Below are positions 4,984-51,670 of a stretch of 64,000 nt of DNA, one piece after another. Location: assembly GCF_003018255.1 (NCBI RefSeq), contig NZ_CP027440.1, one strand, 5' to 3'. The notes beneath the pieces are model-generated. The model ran no database searches and was not told where the DNA came from. It saw only the letters and a list, made by a program, of their open reading frames with translations. A program made the position numbers and the translations under genes. Numbering within the stretch: the stretch's first letter is position 1; each line of letters begins with the position of its first letter. This stretch comes from Escherichia coli. Lineage in GTDB: Bacteria > Pseudomonadota > Gammaproteobacteria > Enterobacterales > Enterobacteriaceae.

Positions 4984-5059
4984 GGCCCTTTAGCTCAGTG
5001 GTGAGAGCGAGCGACTCATAATCGCCAGGTCGCTGGTTCAAATCCAGCAAGGGCCACCA
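4984..5059 (+). tRNA. tRNA with CAT anticodon, ileX-like (tRNA-Ile2, lysidine) rather than Met
   Basis: 76-nt cloverleaf folded by hand: acceptor GGCCCTT/AAGGGCC, anticodon loop CTCATAA, T-loop TTCAAAT, 3' CCA encoded; close to remembered ileX sequence. Confidence 0.8.
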
Positions 5060-5068
5060 TATCACATA

Positions 5069-5145
5069 CCGCCATTAGCTCATCGGGATAGAGCGCCAGC
5101 CTTCGAAGCTGGCTGCGCGGGGTTCGAGTCCTCGATGGCGGTCCA
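5069..5145 (+). tRNA. tRNA-Arg (anticodon TCG)
   Basis: 77-nt cloverleaf: acceptor CCGCCAT/ATGGCGG, anticodon loop CTTCGAA, T-loop TTCGAGT, CCA encoded; 9 nt after the first tRNA. Confidence 0.75.
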
Positions 5146-5852: not shown

Positions 5853-5987
5853 CAGGGGGAGAAGATTTTCTCCTGTCCTGATGATTTTGGGGCGCTGGAA
5901 AGATATTGTGCTGTGAAGTGTTAAATCCCTCACAATTCAGTAAGTTGACAGTTGCCTGTCAGACTGAGCATTTGTTAAAAAAATTTC

Positions 5988-6165
5988 GCATGGTGAATCC
6001 CCCTGTGCGGAGGGGCGACTGGTGAACGGTATGATCTCTTTGATGATCGTAAGCGAGAATACGCGGGTTTGGTGTCACCGGGCTGAACTCACCGGGAGGC
6101 ACCCGGCACCATGCTCATGGTGATACAGAAATGCGGCTTCAGCCCCTCTCCGGAGGGGCTTTCTT
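5988..6165 (+). ncRNA. candidate structured sRNA, repeat family A copy 1
   Basis: Promoter-like TTGCCT-18-TAAAAA, then 5' CAUGGUG, hairpin CCCCU-GUGCGG-AGGGG, hairpin CCGGG-AGGCA-CCCGG, 3' CACCAUG pairing back to the 5' end, and terminator GCCCCTC-TCCG-GAGGGGC plus T-run. Confidence 0.45.
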
Positions 6166-6171
6166 ATGGAC

Positions 6172-6240
6172 AAAAAAAGCCCGCGCTGGGAGACGCGGGC
6201 GGCAAGGAATAAACAATAAAACGTGAAGTAATACTTCAAC
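6172..6240 (-). ncRNA. candidate antisense sRNA, family B copy 1
   Basis: Minus-strand TTGCGC-18-TATTAT promoter (plus 6247-6276), ~70-nt transcript with internal hairpin GAAGT-ATT-ACTTC, ending at terminator GCCCGCG..CGCGGGC plus T-run. Confidence 0.45.
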
Positions 6241-6312
6241 TGGCGAATAATACCCGACAGTAATCACTCTGCGCAATAGCGTGGCCTTTTTCGAATTGCG
6301 GGCTGTAGTCTC

Positions 6313-6484
6313 CCTTCTGCCGGGTGTCCTGGTTGCAGATTTCTTCATGGGGTAGGGTTCGGCAGTTAAAGCAGCGATGGTGCTGGGGCGTCGTGCAACT
6401 GGCGTTGAGCTGGATACCGGGCGTTTTGAACAGACTGCGCAGGAAATCAGGGATGTATTTAGCGGGAGCGGTTTGCAGAAGTAA
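6313..6484 (+). pseudogene. 3' fragment of a DNA methyltransferase gene (duplicate of the 4781-4943 region, in-frame TAG)
   Basis: ~170 nt nearly collinear with the 3' end of the intact methylase gene (DLVADFFMG..GRRATGVEL..), interrupted by a stop; lacks the 5' 90% of the gene. Confidence 0.7.
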
Positions 6485-6547
6485 TCTCCCAAAATGCCAT
6501 TTTTGGAATATACTGGTATTAAGTCTTTTTGCTCAGGTTAATTCAAA

Positions 6548-7273
6548 ATGGATGTTGCCTGCTCTGTGGTCCTGATTCGCTATCCGATAGATATTTTTCT
6601 TGAAAAAGAAAAAGTTTCACTCGATGCCGGAAGTGTTATGCTTGTTGCCAGAAATATAAGAGGGCTTTTCTGTGCTTATGCCGACAGAGTGAAAATGGCA
6701 GATATAAGTAACAGCGTCGTCAATCAGTATCTGGAAAGGGAGTGTGAACTGACGGAGTATACACCGACAAAAATGCCTCTTTATTTGATGTCTGATATTT
6801 ACAATACGGAACTGGCGGAGGCTTTAATAACCCAGCATAGTGAATCCAGTGATACTTTGAAGGATTTCTCTGTTATAACCGCATTTTCATGTATCTCCTT
6901 ATTTGCAACAGACAGACGTCTGCCATTATTTTTGTCCGGTGCTGTAAATAATATCAGCTGTAAAGTAAGGGCTATAATTCAGACCGACATATCGGCAGGC
7001 TGGATGCTTGGTGTGATTGCATTACAATTGCATATGAGCGAAAGCTTGTTGAAGCGAAAACTTAAGGATGAAGGTTATAGCTTTAGTCGGTTGTTGCTGG
7101 AGGAGCGAATGCGTGTTGCTGTTAATCTTGTATGTTTCCAGCGAGAGTGTGGACAAGCGATAGCGGAAAAATGTGGTTACTCAAGTAAGTCCTACTTCAT
7201 TTCTGTATTTCACCAGTATTATGGTGCACCACCTGAGAGCTATGCATATTTGCAGAAAGCAGACGTTATCTGA
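6548..7273 (+). CDS. AraC/XylS-family transcriptional regulator (cargo gene)
   Basis: 241-aa ORF with C-terminal dual helix-turn-helix typical of AraC family (..LKDEGYSFSRLLLEERMRVA..IAEKCGYSSKSYFISVFHQYYGAPPESY); start codon uncertain. Confidence 0.7.
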   Translation: MDVACSVVLIRYPIDIFLEKEKVSLDAGSVMLVARNIRGLFCAYADRVKMADISNSVVNQYLERECELTEYTPTKMPLYLMSDIYNTELAEALITQHSESSDTLKDFSVITAFSCISLFATDRRLPLFLSGAVNNISCKVRAIIQTDISAGWMLGVIALQLHMSESLLKRKLKDEGYSFSRLLLEERMRVAVNLVCFQRECGQAIAEKCGYSSKSYFISVFHQYYGAPPESYAYLQKADVI

Positions 7274-7362
7274 TGTTTTTTCATCAGGCATATATTGATT
7301 GACTGTATTAGATATAGTCTGAATGTGTTCAGCATAAAAAGTTATAATCATTTGGTGTTTGC

Positions 7363-7641
7363 GTGAATATTGATGAGAAAATCAGATGTAGCCAACTGTT
7401 ACAGCGTATTGAAGCCGTCAATGTGGAACGAACAAAGGTCTTCAGTCGTCTGACAGTTTTATTTTGTACCCCTGATCGACGTTCAGGTCAGGAGATGGTT
7501 CTTCTGGATGTAGATGCACTTCGGAACGTCTGTGAGGAGTTCACCGCGGCTAATTCGGAGTTACTGAGTCTTGTTCAGGAGTACAACAGAATTGCAGGTA
7601 GTAACGGTTTTGATGAAATCAAAATTATATCCCGTGGATAA
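7363..7641 (+). CDS. hypothetical protein
   Basis: 92-aa ORF with GTG start 15 nt downstream of a perfect TATAAT; no family recognised; weak RBS. Confidence 0.3.
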   Translation: MNIDEKIRCSQLLQRIEAVNVERTKVFSRLTVLFCTPDRRSGQEMVLLDVDALRNVCEEFTAANSELLSLVQEYNRIAGSNGFDEIKIISRG

Positions 7642-7899
7642 AACATATCCTGTATATTTATGTTGTTACATACAGGCGCTTTTAGTATCTGCCGCACGGC
7701 AGTTGTACTTCAGAATAAGATGCTTTTGTGACTGGTGGTGTTGTATCTGGGGTTAGCCAGTAGGCAGGTTCAGAGAGTCCGGTGGTAATTATGTGTATGC
7801 AGTGGTTGTTGCTGTACCGTGGGCAAGTTCTGGAACTGGCTTCGTCCATTGTAGATGATTGTTAGCTGGATATCAGTTACCTCATGGAAATGTTAAATG

Positions 7900-31234: not shown

Positions 31235-32398
31235 ATGAAAAAAATGACAGTGGCACTTTCTGCTGTAGCAGTTGCAGTGATGTTTGCTGCGGGGGCGCAG
31301 GCAGCAGAAGTTTATAATAAAGATGGTAATAAACTGGATCTTTACGGGCGTGCAACCGCTCTGCATTACTTCTCGGATGATAAAGGTAATGACGGAGATC
31401 AGACTTATGCTCGTCTCGGCTTTAAAGGCGAAACGCAGATTAATGATCAACTGACCGGATTTGGTCAGTGGGAATACCAGTTCTCTGGTAACAAAACGGA
31501 ATCTGAAGGTTCCGCGGGAAATAAAACCCGTCTGGCATTTGCAGGTCTGAGATTTGCTGATGTTGGTAGCATTGATTACGGACGTAACTACGGTATTGCT
31601 TACGATGTCGGATCATATACTGACGTACTGCCAGAGTTTGGTGGTGATGGCTGGACTCAGACCGATAACTTTATGACTGCCCGAACTTCCGGAGTTCTGA
31701 CTTACCGTAATACAGATTTCTTTGGGCTGGTTGATGGTCTGAATTTTGCGGCGCAGTATCAGGGCAAAAATGAGCGCGATGACCTCCAGAAGGCCAATGG
31801 TGATGGGTATGGTTTCTCAGCCAGCTATGAGTTTGATGGTTTTGGTTTTGTGGCTGCGTATACCAAGTCAGATCGTACCAATAAGCAGGTTCAGGGACTG
31901 AATGGTAGCAAAACTATTGAAATCAAAGATCCTTTAACTGGGGATGTGACTGAAAAAGAAGTGGTCGTTGATTCCGGCAGCGTTGCAAAAGGTAAACATG
32001 CTGAATTCTGGGGAACTGGTCTTAAATATGATGCCAATAACCTGTATCTGGCAGCAGTGTATTCAGAAACCCAGAATATGACGACCTTTGGTGATCAAGG
32101 TGTTGCGGATAAAGCTCAGAATATCGAAGCCGTTGTTCAGTATCAGTTTGATTTTGGTCTGCGTCCGTCTCTGGCCTACCTTCAGTCCCGAGGACAGGAT
32201 GTTATGGTTGGTGGTGTGAACCATGGCGATCAGGATCTGGTTAAATATATTGATGTCGGTGCGACTTATTACTTTAACAAGAATATGTCCACCCATGTTG
32301 ATTATAAAATTAACCTGATTGAGGAAAGTGAATTTACCCGGAAAGCCGGTGTTGCGACAGATAATATCGTTGCTGTGGGTATGACTTATCAGTTCTGA
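31235..32398 (+). CDS. OmpC/NmpC/Lc-family general porin (cargo gene inside tail operon)
   Basis: 387 aa, signal peptide ..[20 protein letters not shown].., C-terminal ..GMTYQF; very AT-rich upstream leader; own terminator. Confidence 0.9.
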
Positions 32399-33317: not shown

Positions 33318-34061
33318 ATGACACAGACTGAATCAGCGATTCTGGCGCATGCCCGGCGGTGTGCGCCAGCGGAGTCGTGCGGCTTCGTGATAAGCACCCC
33401 GGAGGGGGAGCGGTACCAGCCCTGCGTGAATATCTCCGCAGAGCCGGAGGCGTATTTTCGTATTGCACCGGAAGACTGGCTGCAGGCACAGATGCAGGGG
33501 GAGATTGTGGCGCTGGTCCACAGTCATCCCGGTGGTCTGCCCTGGCTGAGCGAGGCGGACCGGCGGCTGCAGATAAAGAGTGCCCTGCCCTGGTGGCTGG
33601 TCTGTCGGGGTGAAATTCACCGGTTCCGCTGTGTGCCGCACCTGACCGGACGGCGCTTTGAACACGGTGTGACGGACTGTTACACCCTGTTCCGGGATGC
33701 ATACCATCTGGCGGGGATAACGCTGCCGGATTTTCATCGCGAGGATGACTGGTGGCGCAACGGCCAGAACCTGTACCTGGACAATATGGAGGCCACTGGC
33801 TTTTGCCGGGTGTCCCTGTCCTCTGCACAGGCAGGCGATATCCTGCTGTGCTGCTTTGGCGCATCGGTGCCGAATCATGCCGCCATTTACTGTGGCAACG
33901 GTGAGCTGCTTCACCATATACCTGAACAACTGAGTAAACGGGAGAGGTATTCTGAAAAATGGCAACGACGAACGCATTCTGTCTGGCGTCACCGCCACTG
34001 GTCCGCATCTGCCTTCACGGGGATTTACAACGATTTGGTCGCCGCATCAGTCTGTATGTGA
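33318..34061 (+). CDS. K: tail assembly protein K (NlpC/P60 + JAB/MPN)
   Basis: MTQTESAILAHARRCAPAESCGF.. near-identical to remembered lambda gpK; upstream part of ORF 33057 is not coding. Confidence 0.9.
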   Translation: MTQTESAILAHARRCAPAESCGFVISTPEGERYQPCVNISAEPEAYFRIAPEDWLQAQMQGEIVALVHSHPGGLPWLSEADRRLQIKSALPWWLVCRGEIHRFRCVPHLTGRRFEHGVTDCYTLFRDAYHLAGITLPDFHREDDWWRNGQNLYLDNMEATGFCRVSLSSAQAGDILLCCFGASVPNHAAIYCGNGELLHHIPEQLSKRERYSEKWQRRTHSVWRHRHWSASAFTGIYNDLVAASVCM

Positions 34062-34603
34062 ACACGGCAGCGGAGGCCATCCGTGCCCTGTCGCAGCAGG
34101 TGCCGGGATTCCGCTGTCAGATGAACGAAGGCTGGTACCAGATACGTATTGCCGGTGAGGATACCGCGCCGGACCAGATATCGCCCCGACTGCATGAGCC
34201 ACTGAACCCGGGGGATGTCATTCATCTGGTTCCCCGGGCAGAAGGTGCCAAAAGTGGCGGAGTGTTTCAGGCCGTGCTTGGCGTTGCGCTGGTTGCGGCA
34301 GCTATCTGGATGCCGGGTATCGGTATTGCAGCCAGCAACATCATGTTTTCCATGGGCTCTGCAATGGCACTGGGTGGTGTGGCCCAGATGCTGGCCCCGA
34401 AGGCAAAGACGCCGGAGTACAAAAGCACGGATAACGGCAGACAGAACACGTATTTTTCGTCACTGGACAACATGATTGCTCAGGGGAATCCGGTGCCGGT
34501 GCCTTACGGTGAAATGCTGGTTGGTTCACGACGGATATCCCAGGACATCAGCACCCGTGATGAGGGCGGTGACGGGAAAGTGGTGGTTATCGGGCGGGGA
34601 TGA
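33959..34603 (+). CDS. I: tail assembly protein I
   Basis: 214 aa; ..RICLHGDLQRFGRRI..AKSGGVFQ..GGVAQMLAPKA..NTYFSSLDNM..GEMLVGSR.. matches remembered lambda gpI; overlaps K 3' end. Confidence 0.9.
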   Translation: MATTNAFCLASPPLVRICLHGDLQRFGRRISLYVNTAAEAIRALSQQVPGFRCQMNEGWYQIRIAGEDTAPDQISPRLHEPLNPGDVIHLVPRAEGAKSGGVFQAVLGVALVAAAIWMPGIGIAASNIMFSMGSAMALGGVAQMLAPKAKTPEYKSTDNGRQNTYFSSLDNMIAQGNPVPVPYGEMLVGSRRISQDISTRDEGGDGKVVVIGRG

Positions 34604-35450
34604 AAAAAAATCCCGCAGTGTTCGGCGCCTGCGGGAAGAGATACGAAGATTAACTTTAAGGAATTTTTCATTATTCTGGCAGATGAACTGTAACGCAGCG
34701 TGATTATGAGCACTACAGTCAGTGTGCGGAAATGTGAATAAACTCAGAATTTTTATTCACCGGAAGAGGATTGCCGGATATCGGTGGCAGAGGACAGAAG
34801 GCATCATGCCGGGTTCAGGGGATAAAAAAATCCCGCAGAACTCCGTGCTGCGGGAAGAGAACGATGTTGACTAACCTGTTGGCGTTTTATTTTTATTGAC
34901 CCGCAGAAACTGTAACCTGCCGGAATGCACTCTGCCACGGAGAATGACGGAAAATGTGAAGAAAATCAGAGTTTTTATTTATCCCGTGCATTCGTCTCTG
35001 GCGACAGAGTGGCGTCAGTAATGTCCGTGATACTGAGGGGGGAATTAAAAAATCTCCCGTAATACACCTGGATATTGACGGGAGAAACGAATAGTCACCT
35101 TAAGGAGTAGTTTTGATTATTGCCTGTAATCAGCGGGCGAATTGTAACGTATGGTGATTATGAGTGCCACAGGTAATTTGCAGAAATGTGAATAAATTCA
35201 GAATTTTTATTCACAGGAAGGGGCTGCGGGATATTGGTGGCAGAGGACAGAAAATATCAGGCCGGGTTTAAGGGATAAAAAAATCCCGCAGAGTTAGCGG
35301 AGCTGCGGGAAATAAACGATGAAGATTAACGTTATGGAGTTATTTTTCAGGCATCAAAAAAGTAACGCAGCGTCATTATTGCGGCTACAGGCAATTTGCA
35401 GAAATGTGAAGAATTTCAGAAATTTTATTCCGTCATGACACAGGCACCCT
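34604..35450. repeat. array of four ~210-230-bp repeat units between tail genes I and J
   Basis: Each unit: A-run plus hairpin (TCCCGCAG..CTGCGGGA or TCTCCCGT..ACGGGAGA), which is a minus-strand intrinsic terminator; GATTATGAG box (minus-strand CATAAT); palindrome GTGAATAAA-N7-TTTATTCAC; units 1 and 3 best conserved. Confidence 0.8.
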
Positions 35451-35513
35451 CCGGGGTGCCTGTTGTTTTTGGGCATAAACAGATTCAGACATCAGACAGG
35501 AGAGGGGGACAGA

Positions 35514-38500
35514 GTGGGTAAAGGGGGCGGCAAGGGGCACACACCGCGTGAGGCGAAGGACAATCTCAAATCCACGCAGATGATGAGCGTGATTGATGCC
35601 ATCGGTGAGGGACCGGTGGAAGGCCCGGTGAAGGGACTGCAGAGTATTCTGGTGAACAAAACCCCGCTGACGGACACGGACGGTAATCCCGTGATACACG
35701 GTGTGACCGCCGTCTGGCGTGCCGGGGAGCAGGAGCAGACACCGCCGGAAGGCTTTGAGTCCTCCGGGGCGGAAACCGCACTGGGTGTGGAGGTGACGAA
35801 GGCAAAGCCGGTGACGCGCACCATCACGTCAGCGAACATTGACCGTCTGCGGGTCACCTTCGGGGTGCAGTCACTGGTGGAGACCAGCTCAAAGGGTGAC
35901 CGTAATCCCTCTTCTGTCCGGCTGCTGATTCAGCTTGAGCGTAACGGTAACTGGGGGACGGAGAAGGATGTCACCATTAACGGCAAGACCACCTCGCAGT
36001 ACCTGACGTCGGTGATTCTGAATAATCTCCCTGAGCGCCCCTTTAACATCCGGATGGTCAGGGTGACGGCGGACAGTACCACGGACCAGCTGCAGAACAG
36101 AACGCTGTGGTCGTCATACACCGAAATCATCGATGTGAAACAGTGCTACCCGAACACGGCCATTGTGGGGCTGCAGGTGGATGCGGAGCAGTTCGGTGGC
36201 CAGCAGATGGTGGTGAACTACCATATCCGCGGCCGCATCATTCAGGTGCCGTCAAACTATGACCCGGAAAAACGCACCTACAGCGGTATCTGGGACGGGA
36301 GTCTGAAACCGGCATACAGCAATAACCCGGCCTGGTGCCTGTGGGACATGCTGACCCACCCGCGCTACGGCATGGGAAAACGCCTGGGGGCGGCGGATGT
36401 GGACAAGTGGGCACTGTATGCCATCGGGCAGTACTGTGACCAGACGGTCCCGGATGGTTTCGGGGGCACAGAGCCGCGGATGACTTTCAATGCGTACCTG
36501 TCACAGCAGCGTAAGGTCTGGGATGTCCTGGGGGATTTCTGCTCGGCGATGCGCTGTATGCCGGTATGGAACGGCCAGACGCTGACGTTCGTTCAGGACC
36601 GTCCGTCGGATGTGGTGTGGCCGTACACCAACAGCGATGTGGTGGTGGATGATAACGGCGTGGGGTTCCGCTACAGCTTCAGTGCCCTGAAGGACCGGCA
36701 CACGGCGGTGGAGGTGAATTACACCGACCCGCAGAACGGCTGGCAGACTTCCACGGAACTGGTGGAAGACCCGGACGCCATCCTGCGCTACGGGCGCAAC
36801 CTGCTGAAGATGGACGCGTTCGGCTGTACCAGCCGCGGTCAGGCTCACCGTGCCGGACTGTGGGTGATAAAGACCGAACTGCTGGAAACGCAGACGGTGG
36901 ATTTCACGCTCGGGTCTCAGGGGCTGCGGCACACGCCCGGTGACATCATTGAAATCTGTGATAACGACTATGCCGGGACCCTGACCGGCGGACGCATCCT
37001 GTCCATTGATGCCGCCAGCCGCACACTGACGCTGGACCGTGAGGTGACACTGCCTGAGACAGGTACATCGACGGTGAACCTGATTAACGGCAGCGGTAAG
37101 CCGGTGCGCGTGGACATCACTGCACACCCCGCCCCTGACCGGATACAGGTCAGCGTCCTGCCTGATGGCGTGGCGACATACGGTGTGTGGGGACTCTCCC
37201 TGCCGTCACTGCGTCGTCGCCTGTTCCGCTGTGTTTCCATCCGGGAAAACACGGACGGCACCTTTGCCATCACGGCGGTGCAGCACGTACCGGAAAAAGA
37301 AGCCATTGTGGATAACGGGGCCCGCTTTGAGCCTATGTCCGGTTCACTGAACAGCGTCATCCCGCCGGCGGTGCAGCACCTCACGCTGGAGGTGAGCGCC
37401 TCAGACGGCCAGTATCTGGCGCTGGCGAAATGGGACACGCCGCGGGTGGTGAAGGGCGTGCGCTTCAGTCTGCGCCTGACCAGCGGAAACGGTGAAAACA
37501 GCCGCCTGGTGACCAGCGCCATCACGGCGGACACGGAGTACCGTTTCAGTGGCCTGCCGCTCGGGGAATACACCCTGACGGTCAGGGCGATAAACAGCTA
37601 CGGCCAGCAGGGCGAACCTGCCACCACCACATTCCGGATTAATGCACCGGCGGCACCGGCCAGCATTGAACTGACGCCGGGGTATTTTCAGATAACGGTG
37701 GTCCCGCATCCTGCGGTGTATGACCCGACGGTACAGTCTGAATTCTGGTTCTCAGAAAAACGCATCACGGACACGGCACAGGTGGAAACCTCTGCCCGTT
37801 ATCTGGGGACAGGCAGTCAGTGGAGTGTCTCCGGCCCGCACATTAAGCCCGGGAAGGATTTCTGGTTTTATGTGCGCAGCGTCAACCTGGTGGGGAAATC
37901 TGCGTTTGTGGAGGCCAGCGGGCAGGCCAGCAATGATGGTGAAGGGTATCTGGAAATTTTCCGTGGGCTGATAGATGAGGCGCAGCTGGGGAAGGCACTG
38001 AAAGAGCGTATTGATGCGTCAGCCCTGCGTACTGATGTCACGCAACTGGAAGAAGATATCCGCCAGCGACTGGAGACGGATGTTGCGGAAGTGACCCGAA
38101 AAATCGGGGAGGCGGAAAACAGCCTCACGCAGCTGGTTGCGAAAAAGAATGAGGACCAGACGCTGGCCATCGCGCAGGTGAGTCAGCAGGTGGACCGGGT
38201 GAGCAGTGAAATCACACAGACAGTCAGCCAGAGCACGGAGGAAAACGCCAGGCAGATAGCGCAGGTCCGCCAGTACGTGGATGACAAAGGGAGTGAAATC
38301 ACCTCGACCACGGATAAAAAGCTGGAAGACCAGAGCGCGACCATACAGCAGATACAGCAGGTCCAGTCAGACACGAATGATGAGCTGGCTGCGCTGTACA
38401 TGCTGAAGGTGCAGAAAACGAAAAACGGCATTCCGTATGTTGCCGGTATTGGTGCGGGGATTGAGGATGCTGATGGCCAGACGCTGAGCAATATTCTGCT

Positions 38501-39200
38501 GCAGGCGGACCGTATCGCAATGATTACCCCGGAGAACGGCAACACCACGCCGCTGTTTGTGGCACAGGGGAATCAGCTGTTCATGAACGACGTGTTCCTG
38601 AAGCGACTGTTTGCGGTGAGTATCACGTCATCCGGCAATCCCCCGACGTTTTCCCTGACGCCGGACGGCAGGCTGACGGCCCGCAATGCGGATATCAGCG
38701 GACATATCAGTGCGAACTCGGGCACGCTCAATAATGTCGTGATAGCGGAGAACTGTACGATAAATGGCACGCTGAAAGCGGAGAACATTATTGGTGATCT
38801 GGTGAAATGTGCAGGGGTGGCTTTTCCGGTGGATGGTAGTTACCTTGCGAACGGTACACGGACGCTGACGGTGTATGACGATCACAGCTTTGACCGGCAG
38901 ATTATAATCCCGCCGATAATCTATGTCGGGTCAAAACAGGAATCCCGCACCAGTAATGACATCTGGACAGAGTGCTTCCTGCATGTTGATCAGAACGGAC
39001 GCCGGATTTATTCAGGCAGGTCAGTGGCAGAGCCGGGAATTTTCAGCGGGATCATCGATATGCCAGCTGGCGGTGGTCATATCACCCTGAGTTTTACCGT
39101 GAGCTCACGGCGTCAGAATAACAGTTGGGGCAGTTCACGAATCAGTAACCTTCAGGCGATAGTGGTGAAGAAAAACAGCGCGGGGATCAGCATCCGCTGA
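35514..39200 (+). CDS. J: central tail fibre / host-specificity protein J
   Basis: GTG start ([20 protein letters not shown]..) after GGAGAGGGGGA RBS; collinear with remembered lambda J for most of its length, with an extra coiled-coil-like insertion (~38.0-38.4 kb). Confidence 0.9.
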
Positions 39201-39398: not shown

Positions 39399-39539
39399 AT
39401 GTCGCAAAAACCGTTAAAAACCACCGTGATTTGTATCACGGTAGTGCTCATTATCTGGATCACCCACACTTCACTGTGCGAGTTCCGGTTCCGGATAGCG
39501 GGCGCGGAGATTGCGGCGTTCTTACAGTGTAAGCGGTAA
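39399..39539 (+). CDS. Hok/Gef-family type I toxin (46 aa)
   Basis: MSQKPLKTTVICITVVLIIWITHTSLCEFRFRIAGAEIAAFLQCKR: N-terminal TM helix and conserved SLCE..R...EIAAF motif; AAAGGAG RBS; below ORF-track size cutoff. Confidence 0.7.
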   Translation: MSQKPLKTTVICITVVLIIWITHTSLCEFRFRIAGAEIAAFLQCKR

Positions 39540-42099: not shown

Positions 42100-42660
42100 T
42101 TAAAACCGCATCAACCGTTCTACCAGTTGTTCTTTACGGGCAACGATCCAGCCGTGTTGCTCCAGATAAAATTTAAACCGCTCCAGAGTGCATACCATCG
42201 CATCGGCGGGGACTTTTTCTGTGAACTCTACCTGACCGTGTTTATCAAAGTGGATCAGTAATGCGCATCCATCATTTGGGGTGGGGGAGTTTTGTGTTGC
42301 TGGTGGTTGTTTATGGCTGAAATAACAGTCTTCCAGTTTTTCGAACACTTCCCACGCCTGATCGGTTTCGAGCATTTTTGCATGGCGGGCAGCGCCACGT
42401 TCTGTCCAGAGGATAAGGGAGCGGGCATTTTTACCAACTAACCCGATTGTTTCGGGTCTGTTCTTAAACTCGCGTAATTCGTTTTTTTCAATTTTAAAGT
42501 AATGCTTTCCTACCACGAATCGCGTCGTGTTGTTCAGAAAGTTATCAGAAATGTTTTTGATTTTTGTTCCGTATAACTGCGCCAGAAGTTCAGTTGTAAT
42601 AACGGGGATCTGGTTGTGGGTGATTGCAGGAAGAGTGTCGACAGAAATTTGAGTGGTCAT
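42100..42660 (-). CDS. ORF6N/KilA-N-like DNA-binding protein (putative antirepressor-like regulator)
   Basis: 186 aa from ATG at 42660 with GGAG RBS; N-terminal ..ITHNQIPVITTELLAQLYGTKIKNISDNFLNNTTRFVVGKHYFKIEKNELREF..; last prophage gene before attR, antisense to late genes. Confidence 0.5.
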   Translation of the reverse strand: MTTQISVDTLPAITHNQIPVITTELLAQLYGTKIKNISDNFLNNTTRFVVGKHYFKIEKNELREFKNRPETIGLVGKNARSLILWTERGAARHAKMLETDQAWEVFEKLEDCYFSHKQPPATQNSPTPNDGCALLIHFDKHGQVEFTEKVPADAMVCTLERFKFYLEQHGWIVARKEQLVERLMRF

Positions 42661-43130
42661 AACGATAACTCCGTACATTTGAAAATTATCGCCACCTTCA
42701 GGTTCCAATCATCATGGTGGCGAACTGTGCGGGGTTGGAACTACCGGGTACGGAAACCGGCGAGCCTTTCGGCTCCCCCACACAGCCCGCCATAAATCGC
42801 GAATGTGACTGTGCAAACGATATGAAAAAAGACGCGGGCGCGTCTCATATCGCTCCGTAAACATCCGGGGTTCCAATCCCGACGCCAGATTTTGCTGACG
42901 CGTTGGAAATATAGCCCCGGAGGATAAAAACTGTCAACGGGTAAAAAAATTTCCGTTATCAGGAATGTATAAAATTAAAGCAATCGAGCAAAAAAACTCT
43001 CTGCAAAACTAAAAAAGATCTCAATAAAATCAGGCAGTTAAAAACACGGAAAAACGGTATAAAAAAGCATCTCAAAATCCTGTTTTTTCTTTCAGATACA
43101 ATATGTTATTGCATTTTTTAAAACCTGCCA

Positions 43131-43247
43131 GTCTGGTACATGGATATTGATACCACTGCCAATTATAAACTGGGCGGTGCACAGCAACACGATAGCGTAC
43201 GCCTCGATCCGTGGGTGTTTATGTTCTCAGCAGGATATCGTTTTTAA
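43131..43247 (+). other. ompW: ompW 3'-end fragment (..VWYMDIDTTANYKLGGAQQHDSVRLDPWVFMFSAGYRF*), probable attR / integration-site remnant
   Basis: In-frame translation matches remembered OmpW C-terminus only from ~43131 onward; upstream DNA is phage-like; next gene is yciE as in the E. coli ompW neighbourhood. Confidence 0.55.
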
Positions 43248-51555: not shown

Positions 51556-51582
51556 AAAAAAAAGCCCGCTCATTAGGCGGGC
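51556..51582 (-). terminator. trp attenuator terminator
   Basis: Minus-strand AGCCCGCCTAATGAGCGGGCT hairpin followed by T8, between trpL and trpE. Confidence 0.85.
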
Positions 51583-51625
51583 TGGGTATCTGATTGCTTT
51601 ACGCATGGTGAATACACTGCCCGTT

Positions 51626-51670
51626 TCAGGAAGTGCGCCACCAACCTTTCAGTACGAAAATTGCTTTCAT
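51626..51670 (-). CDS. trpL: trp operon leader peptide ([14 protein letters not shown])
   Basis: 14-codon ORF with tandem Trp codons read directly from the minus strand. Confidence 0.85.

Follow-up and report, generated by a model that had tools for sequence, protein, structure and literature searches.

The 64,000-nt stretch of Escherichia coli DNA analyzed here (NZ_CP027440.1; referred to as the window) carries a prophage whose tail genes I and J are separated by an array of four related units on the minus strand, numbered 1 to 4 from I to J. With a probability of roughly 75%, this array consists of four tandem copies, diverged from one another, of a single prophage small-RNA gene that belongs to the family of EcOnc22/23/24 and PasB. 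The units are assigned to a small-RNA gene with experimentally established relatives because they are homologous to EcOnc22 and PasB.

Relationship of the array to EcOnc22 and PasB

Unit 4 was 96% identical to the EcOnc22 RNA of prophage Sp15 of E. coli O157 Sakai; identity to EcOnc22 was 59-73% for units 1-3, and that of the units to PasB was 57-75%. EcOnc22, EcOnc23, and EcOnc24 are homologous RNAs crosslinked to Hfq and encoded by the Sakai prophages Sp15, Sp14, and Sp11 (Table S2 of Tree et al, 2014; PMC4104026). They form peaks in crosslinking and analysis of cDNA (CRAC) with Hfq, are ~85 nt long on northern blots, and are destabilized in a Δhfq strain (PMC4104026). In the current Sakai record, the I-J gap of Sp15 (2902691-2902930, 240 bp) contains a single unit nearly identical to unit 4. 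According to a chimeric read from RNase E-CLASH (crosslinking, ligation, and sequencing of hybrids), EcOnc22 carries GCCTGAAAAATAACTCCATAACGTTAATCTTCA at the old coordinates 2902717-2902749. This sequence is present in the Sp15 unit, ~128 nt higher in the current record, a shift that we take to be the 128-bp difference between the versions of the Sakai record (current length 5,498,578). The CLASH read thus decisively fixes EcOnc22 in the I-J gap of Sakai Sp15. The northern probe used for EcOnc22/23/24 is close to the plus strand of the Sp15 unit, yet does not match it within three mismatches.

PasB of enteropathogenic E. coli (EPEC) E2348/69 is encoded by prophage PP6, on the minus strand of NC_011601 at 1466343-1466261 (Pearl Mizrahi et al, 2021, Table S6; PMC8550237). 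Its site lies between a tail assembly gene (ending at 1466255) and gpJ (starting at 1466496), and its sequence is that of a homologous unit. PasB was verified by northern blotting, dropped 100-fold when hfq was absent (log2 −6.8), and had 37 partners by ligation and sequencing of interacting RNAs (RIL-seq; PMC8550237). Location in the I-J spacer, orientation opposite to the operon, sequence similarity, and a Rho-independent terminator with a U tail place the units of the window in the same family. A previous reading of the window, made from the sequence only, had proposed small-RNA genes antisense to the tail operon; the 96% identity to EcOnc22 and the occurrence of PasB at the same place and on the same strand support that proposal.

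No function has been published for the EcOnc22/PasB family, and EcOnc22 is listed with unknown targets. PasB and EcOnc22 are not connected in the 2026 survey of Pas RNAs, nor in the PasB table, which gives homologues in enterohemorrhagic E. coli (EHEC) for PasA and PasD1 and none for PasB (PMC8550237). In the survey, PasB is the least diverse of the Pas RNAs, typically present as one variant per genome and limited to Escherichia/Shigella, and tandem PasB arrays are not reported (Zhu, Shabalina and Storz, 2026, preprint). A search of Rfam release 15 yielded no match over 34604-35513, even at E values up to 1 or at gathering thresholds. Among other candidates, HnrS (EcOnc10-12), a 66-nt RNA that is likewise multicopy and located among late genes, was rejected, its Sakai coordinates being ~5 kb from AgvB and not at the I-J junction; the sequences of PasA, PasC, and PasD are unrelated.

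Four related units in the I-J gap

Tail assembly gene I (33959-34603, plus strand) ends with the TGA codon at 34601-34603, and the gene for the tail tip and host specificity protein J (35514-39200, plus strand) starts with GTG at 35514. Both were taken from the list of open reading frames and from the Prokaryotic Genome Annotation Pipeline (PGAP) annotation of the 100% identical genome NZ_CP027373.1, for which PGAP chose the same GTG as the start of J. Because I stops at 34603 and J begins at 35514, the gap between them (34604-35513) is 910 bp long, and it holds four related units of ~220 bp, all on the minus strand. The sequence-only reading had placed four units in a gap of ~850 bp (34604-35450); the array is real, and the gap extends to 35513. 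In phage lambda, the I-J gap measures 60 bp and contains a hairpin alone. An analogous hairpin with a T tract (35440-35473, plus strand; 10 pairs, seven of them GC, followed by TGTTTTT) was recorded by a terminator scan in the window, immediately 5′ of the J ribosome-binding site and outside all units. Relatives carry a compensatory C-G to T-A variant of it. The hairpin is an ancestral feature of the I-J junction, shared with lambda; it looks like a terminator, within the late operon.

Repeat finding detected four copies of one family, spaced 222, 232, and 218 bp apart, and families of two longer copies that recur every ~454 bp. Tandem Repeats Finder did not detect the array, because the copies have diverged (62-74% identity). 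An nhmmer profile of the RNA part was built solely from relatives in other genomes, that is, the units of the window were excluded. On the window, it gave exactly four matches, exclusively on the minus strand: 34604-34696 (E = 2e-19), 34824-34916 (E = 5e-10), 35048-35117 (E = 2e-5), and 35277-35368 (E = 4e-16). The pattern of a conserved 28-nt box likewise matched the window four times, compared with 0.01 matches expected by chance. Thus, four related minus-strand units, as claimed before, are borne out by repeat finding and by a profile independent of the window.

Across the promoter and upstream parts, units 1 and 3 are 82-88% identical, and units 2 and 4 are 74% identical. The ~454-bp period means that a block of two units was duplicated; this duplication, together with recombination among prophages, is the origin of the array. 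When the RNA bodies of the family were clustered at 88% identity, the order of the resulting unit types, from the J side to the I side, was C-J-E-G (units 4-3-2-1).

Anatomy of the units

Read on the minus strand, a unit has the box TCTGA-N6-TCACATTT first; the −10 hexamer follows 24 nt further on, and a conserved GCGUUA ~8 nt after that. Next come a U-rich part, a variable A-rich part, the conserved motifs ACUCCUUAA and GUUAAUCUUC, a short variable spacer, and the terminator. The conserved motifs of the RNA body, which can also be given as ACUCCUUAA and UUAAUCUUC, lie within the first ~60 nt, which are unstructured. RNAalifold, applied to 25 diverse members, predicted the terminator hairpin as the sole structure, with two pairs changed on both sides; in line with this, single-sequence folds were weakly structured over the first ~60 nt. 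The terminator stem is UCCCGCAG/CUGCGGGA in units 1, 2, and 4, and all four terminators continue with six to eight U. The predicted layout is the one usual for an Hfq-dependent base-pairing RNA. The RNA predicted from the −10 box is 91 nt long, compatible with the ~85 nt of EcOnc22.

The small RNA of unit 1 (type G; predicted ~93 nt) corresponds to 34604-34696. Its terminator (34604-34636) folds into an 8-bp GC stem followed by a U run, and its U tail lies directly next to the I stop codon. The promoter region (34703-34760) comprises the −10 box CATAAT (34703-34708), a box resembling the binding site of CRP, TCTGA-N6-TCACA (34733-34748), and a perfect palindrome, GTGAATAAA-N9-TTTATTCAC (34734-34760). 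Unit 3 (type J) has the same plan: a small RNA of predicted ~104 nt (35047-35150) and a promoter region (35157-35214) with CATAAT at 35157-35162, the CRP-like box at 35187-35202, and the perfect palindrome at 35188-35214. Its terminator (35047-35084) is built on a different stem, CUCCCGU...ACGGGAG, which forms a 13-bp hairpin through compensatory pairs and is followed by a U run. The earlier observation that the terminator stem varies while pairing is kept was therefore correct. In unit 4 (type C), the small RNA (35277-35368; the copy nearly identical to EcOnc22) ends in a terminator at 35277-35310, and its promoter region (35375-35420) contains the −10 box AATAAT (35375-35380) and the CRP-like box (35405-35420).

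The small-RNA-like copy of unit 2 (type E; 34824-34918, with its terminator at 34824-34855) resembles type D, which is a common single-copy type, but the conserved CUCC and UUAAUCUUC motifs of its body differ from those of the family. In the promoter remnant (34925-34970), the box TCTGA-N6-TCACA is intact (34955-34970), and GTGCAT (34925-34930) stands where the related types D and K carry TATCAT. Unit 2 is probably a decaying copy, since the −10 box and both conserved body motifs have been lost. Units 1, 3, and 4, by contrast, look functional. Of the decay previously ascribed to units 2 and 4, that of unit 2 thus stands, and that of unit 4 does not, given its 96% identity to the experimentally detected EcOnc22. 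CATAAT, thought to occur in each unit, is found in units 1 and 3, its place being taken by AATAAT in unit 4 and by GTGCAT in unit 2.

A CRP-like box in the promoters

The box TCTGA-N6-TCACATTT is invariant in the four units and in the Sp15 unit, whereas its 6-nt spacer varies; the hexamer lies at the same distance from it in all four units. Its conservation was assessed in units picked by terminator and RNA body alone, which avoids circularity. Among 37 distinct units, 31 have kept the box (30 with TCTGA and one with TATGA); in the remaining six, the entire promoter has been swapped for unrelated DNA. One group of loci (L141, L133, L134, L143, and L176) retains RNA body and terminator, the promoter having given way to unrelated DNA directly at the predicted start site. 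In another relative (L100, near 5754, minus strand), the unit is broken just past the box by a transposase gene of the insertion sequence type.

The consensus of the 22-bp CRP site is AAATGTGA-N6-TCACATTT, that is, TGTGA-N6-TCACA-TTT. The units read TCTGA-N6-TCACA-TTT, which fits 13 of the 16 specified positions of this consensus; one half-site and its flank are perfect. In EPEC, PasB was higher in the "non-activating" condition, whereas Spot 42, which is repressed by CRP, was fivefold higher in the "activating" condition; this opposite behavior is circumstantial support for control by CRP. The promoter of the PasB type has a good −35 element (TTCACA), a 16-bp spacer, and TATAAT. The −35 regions of units 1, 3, and 4 are poor, so that a need for an activator is more plausible in their case. 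We therefore hypothesize that the box is most likely a CRP-type activator site.

The palindrome GTGAATAAA/TTTATTCAC behaves differently. It is perfect only in units 1 and 3, has no further copy in the 64-kb window, and is absent, among 216 fetched loci, from all unit types but those of these two units. The perfect 9-bp inverted repeat that the sequence-only reading had assigned to every unit, with a spacer of 7 nt, is hence real, although its spacer is 9 nt and its occurrence is restricted to units 1 and 3. Its supposed role as the operator of each unit is not supported, because it is confined to two array-specific types and the conserved element is TCTGA-N6-TCACATTT; taken as a marker of a regulon, it had no other copy in the window. 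For the AT-rich part upstream of the box, an ArgR box (TGAATAAAAATTCT) and an UP element were rejected as readings, since it contains a single ARG-like box and is not conserved across the family.

Distribution and composition of the arrays

At least one matching place was present in 802 of 5426 complete E. coli genomes (median 3, maximum 9). The four-unit array occurred in 78 of the 5426, with an identical order of units in every case; these were mostly non-O157 Shiga-toxin producers and bovine isolates. Most other carrier genomes have a single unit in a gap of ~240 bp. Among IMG/VR loci, 161 contained one unit (plus 18 at contig ends), 5-6 contained two, one contained three, and 8-9 contained four. 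The family comprises at least 14 sequence types. All nine four-unit arrays have the same order, C-J-E-G; the orders of other arrays are N-K-A, N-K-C, I-A, I-C, and C-E. The G, J, and E types were observed exclusively within arrays.

Every unit or array resided in the I-J gap (65 loci with both the I and the J end placed by tblastn), whatever the alleles of I and J (67-100% protein identity). Outside E. coli, a stringent two-motif pattern applied to one genome per species detected true homologues only in E. albertii; two more contigs matched in the same search, probably owing to contamination or mis-binning. This range fits the published limitation of PasB to Escherichia/Shigella.

Expression in lysogens and proposed mode of action

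In uninduced EPEC lysogens, the RNA-seq baseMean of pasB was 482-1082, compared with 5 for I and 15 for J (PMC8550237). Under one condition, the RIL-seq partners of PasB included ler, perB, bfpB, bfpI, ftsZ, galE, and rplX (PMC8550237); chimeras of PasB with I or J were absent from the RIL-seq tables. The data favor a trans-acting RNA that would be made during lysogeny. Transcription, Hfq binding, and trans partners are known from the literature on the relatives; control by CRP, the activity of each unit, and the trans action of the copies in the window are what we infer.

Each unit would be an autonomous, moron-like transcription unit, with a σ70 promoter plus the box, an RNA of ~90-100 nt, and a Rho-independent terminator. 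Judging from the relatives, the RNAs would be produced during lysogeny, when the tail genes are silent; they would associate with Hfq and base-pair in trans with mRNAs of host and virulence genes. Units 1, 3, and 4 would each yield such an RNA in the lysogen, and the array would add both dosage and sequence variants of a trans-acting regulator. During lytic growth, late transcription would probably occlude the small-RNA promoters. Because the units point against the late operon, their one-way terminators should be unable to stop late transcription.

When the four RNA bodies were scanned for duplex energy along the two strands of the 64-kb window, none of the 8395 scan windows was an outlier beyond a z-score of about −5, and the initiation region of J was unremarkable. 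The ftsZ fragment recovered with PasB by RIL-seq (E2348/69 ftsA-ftsZ junction, 111363-111505) spans the translation-initiation region of ftsZ, a region classically targeted by the prophage RNA DicF; no convincing pairing between PasB and this fragment was found.

Alternative explanations

The fixed location of the family suggests another mode of action, namely in cis on the late operon. Antisense pairing with the I-J spacer of the mRNA followed by RNase III cleavage, or head-on transcription, from up to four promoters, would then lower J and the downstream genes, or uncouple them, during lytic growth. All units with locatable flanks do lie in the I-J gap and on the opposite strand, next to any I and J alleles (67-100%), and the way the locus is built makes each RNA perfectly complementary to the late transcript. 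Furthermore, a cis effect would have gone unseen, because the cultures that supplied the interactome data were uninduced and had silent I and J genes. However, the fixed position can also be explained by a single moron insertion inherited with the tail module, and lambda and many other phages do without the element. The RNAs are confined to the I-J spacer, overlap neither coding sequence nor a ribosome-binding site, and do not qualify as cis-antisense RNAs: the predicted 5′ end of the unit 4 RNA (35368) is 146 nt away from the start of J, and contact with I is limited to the U tail of unit 1, which touches the last base of its stop codon. We therefore regard action in cis as unlikely. The involvement in tail or receptor regulation, or in exclusion, envisaged by the sequence-only reading is not supported by the available data either, given that the RNAs are restricted to the spacer, that I and J are almost silent in EPEC lysogens with abundant PasB, and that the recorded partners of PasB are host and virulence mRNAs.

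The I-J junction of lambdoid prophages could act as a cassette site, in which small-RNA genes of one family collect and are reshuffled; the types number at least 14, in arrays of one to four units. A multi-unit array could then serve as an RNA-based defence, its RNAs acting as antisense to the I-J spacers of related competing phages and bringing about, in the lysogen, cleavage of the tail-gene mRNA of relatives that superinfect or are co-resident. Every carrier phage would target itself, though, and the array-specific types match no single-unit phage closely, which renders this explanation very unlikely. It is even harder to believe that the RNA is irrelevant and that the array is a set of protein-binding sites, serving as operators or as a decoy. 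Four conserved 16-bp boxes and two perfect 27-bp palindromes within 700 bp would suit that purpose, but the box is found at a fixed 32 nt from the −10 hexamer, followed by a conserved RNA body and a terminator; relatives make a stable, Hfq-bound RNA, most carriers have a single unit, and the palindrome is missing from almost all family members. Descent of the units from one or more degraded protein-coding genes between I and J, named by the sequence-only reading as what would speak against small-RNA genes, can be virtually dismissed. Short open reading frames of 30-50 codons do exist on both strands; nine of them were compared with the PHROG families, and none matched (best E = 0.1). Only 23% of the pairwise indels among 32 distinct homologous units are multiples of three, and the variation in T-run length would shift any reading frame.

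Several points weigh against the interpretation of the array as a set of CRP-responsive genes for trans-acting small RNAs. Expression of units 1-3 is argued from their relatives. The CLASH hybrids of EcOnc22 and EcOnc23 amount to only one or two reads, with weak P-values. A seed search over three PasB RIL-seq fragments (ler, ftsZ, and galE) demonstrated no seed, the best match being 8 nt of complementarity to ler, which was reached by 8.7% of shuffles. RNA-seq places the start of PasB ~15 nt further downstream than its TATAAT box would predict, so that the 5′ end is uncertain. The second half-site of the CRP-like box agrees at four of five positions, and the center of the site is 32 nt before the −10 hexamer in all four units, corresponding to approximately −44.5 for a standard start. 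A canonical class II CRP site is centered at −41.5; the box is off this position, with the start site being a predicted one. Finally, the family may be strictly confined to the I-J junction on account of a function in cis, to which trans-interactome methods in lysogens are blind.

Significance

Elements of this kind are known from work of 2014 and 2021; in that respect, the finding is incremental. What appears to be new is the joining of EcOnc22 and PasB in one diverse family at the I-J junction, the existence of heterotypic tandem arrays of two to four genes, and the CRP-like box common to all promoter-bearing members. The shared box provides a testable hypothesis on the timing of RNA production. 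Shiga-toxin-producing and enteropathogenic E. coli often carry the family, which is present in 802 of the 5426 complete genomes. Since ler, the master regulator of the LEE virulence island, was recovered with one member, the number and the variants of the copies could affect virulence regulation.

Neighboring features of the prophage

Past the tRNA genes at 4984-5142, five tandem copies of STnc100 (5959-8910, plus strand; Rfam scores of 119-172 bits) form a second tandem small-RNA array in the same prophage; STnc100 is related to PasD (Zhu, Shabalina and Storz, 2026, preprint). A gene for an OmpC-type porin of 387 amino acids (31235-32398, plus strand) lies between tail genes M and L as a protein-coding moron of the tail operon. 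Right after J, a toxin gene of the Hok/Gef family is located at 39399-39539 (plus strand), and no Sok RNA was detected beside it at the Rfam gathering score. C4 antisense RNA (79 bits) and IsrK (73 bits) were found at 42713-42901 (minus strand), beside 42100-42660 (minus strand) and directly upstream of an ORF6N-domain gene, a layout that resembles the antirepressor control region of P1/P7 and the isrK locus of Gifsy-1. The prophage terminates at a truncated ompW, next to yciEFG and the trp operon, with the Trp leader at 51556-51649. A frameshift is annotated in the portal gene of the 100% identical genome, so that the prophage may be defective, though the RNA array is intact; these portal and ompW observations concern the window up to 24467 and positions 43122-43247.

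Comparison with known systems

EcOnc22 shares the I-J position, strand, promoter box, and terminator with the units of the window. In the one copy examined, that of Sp15, it is a single unit in a 240-bp gap, whereas the window has four heterogeneous units in 910 bp. PasB follows the same plan, with the box, a −10 element, an unstructured body containing ACUCCUU and AUCUUCAU, and a CCCGCAG terminator, but its promoter is close to the consensus, in contrast to the weak −35 regions of units 1, 3, and 4. AgvB and AsxR of EHEC are also prophage-encoded and Hfq-bound, and they too occupy a fixed, moron-type site and form families of related, non-identical copies; they differ in their location downstream of PR′, in their length (51-60 nt), and in lacking any sequence similarity to the units. 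Head-to-tail paralogous small-RNA genes, each with its own terminator, are found in STnc100, OmrA/OmrB, and PrrF1/PrrF2 as well. Their sequences are unrelated, STnc100 is on the other strand and in a different module, and the copies in the I-J array are much more diverged (58-73% identity between units), one of them apparently being dead. In the outline of the moron concept (Juhala et al, 2000), an autonomous unit of promoter, gene, and terminator sits between two late genes, just as each unit of the array does; relative to that outline, the cargo in the window is a non-coding RNA gene, directed against the operon and multiplied four times.

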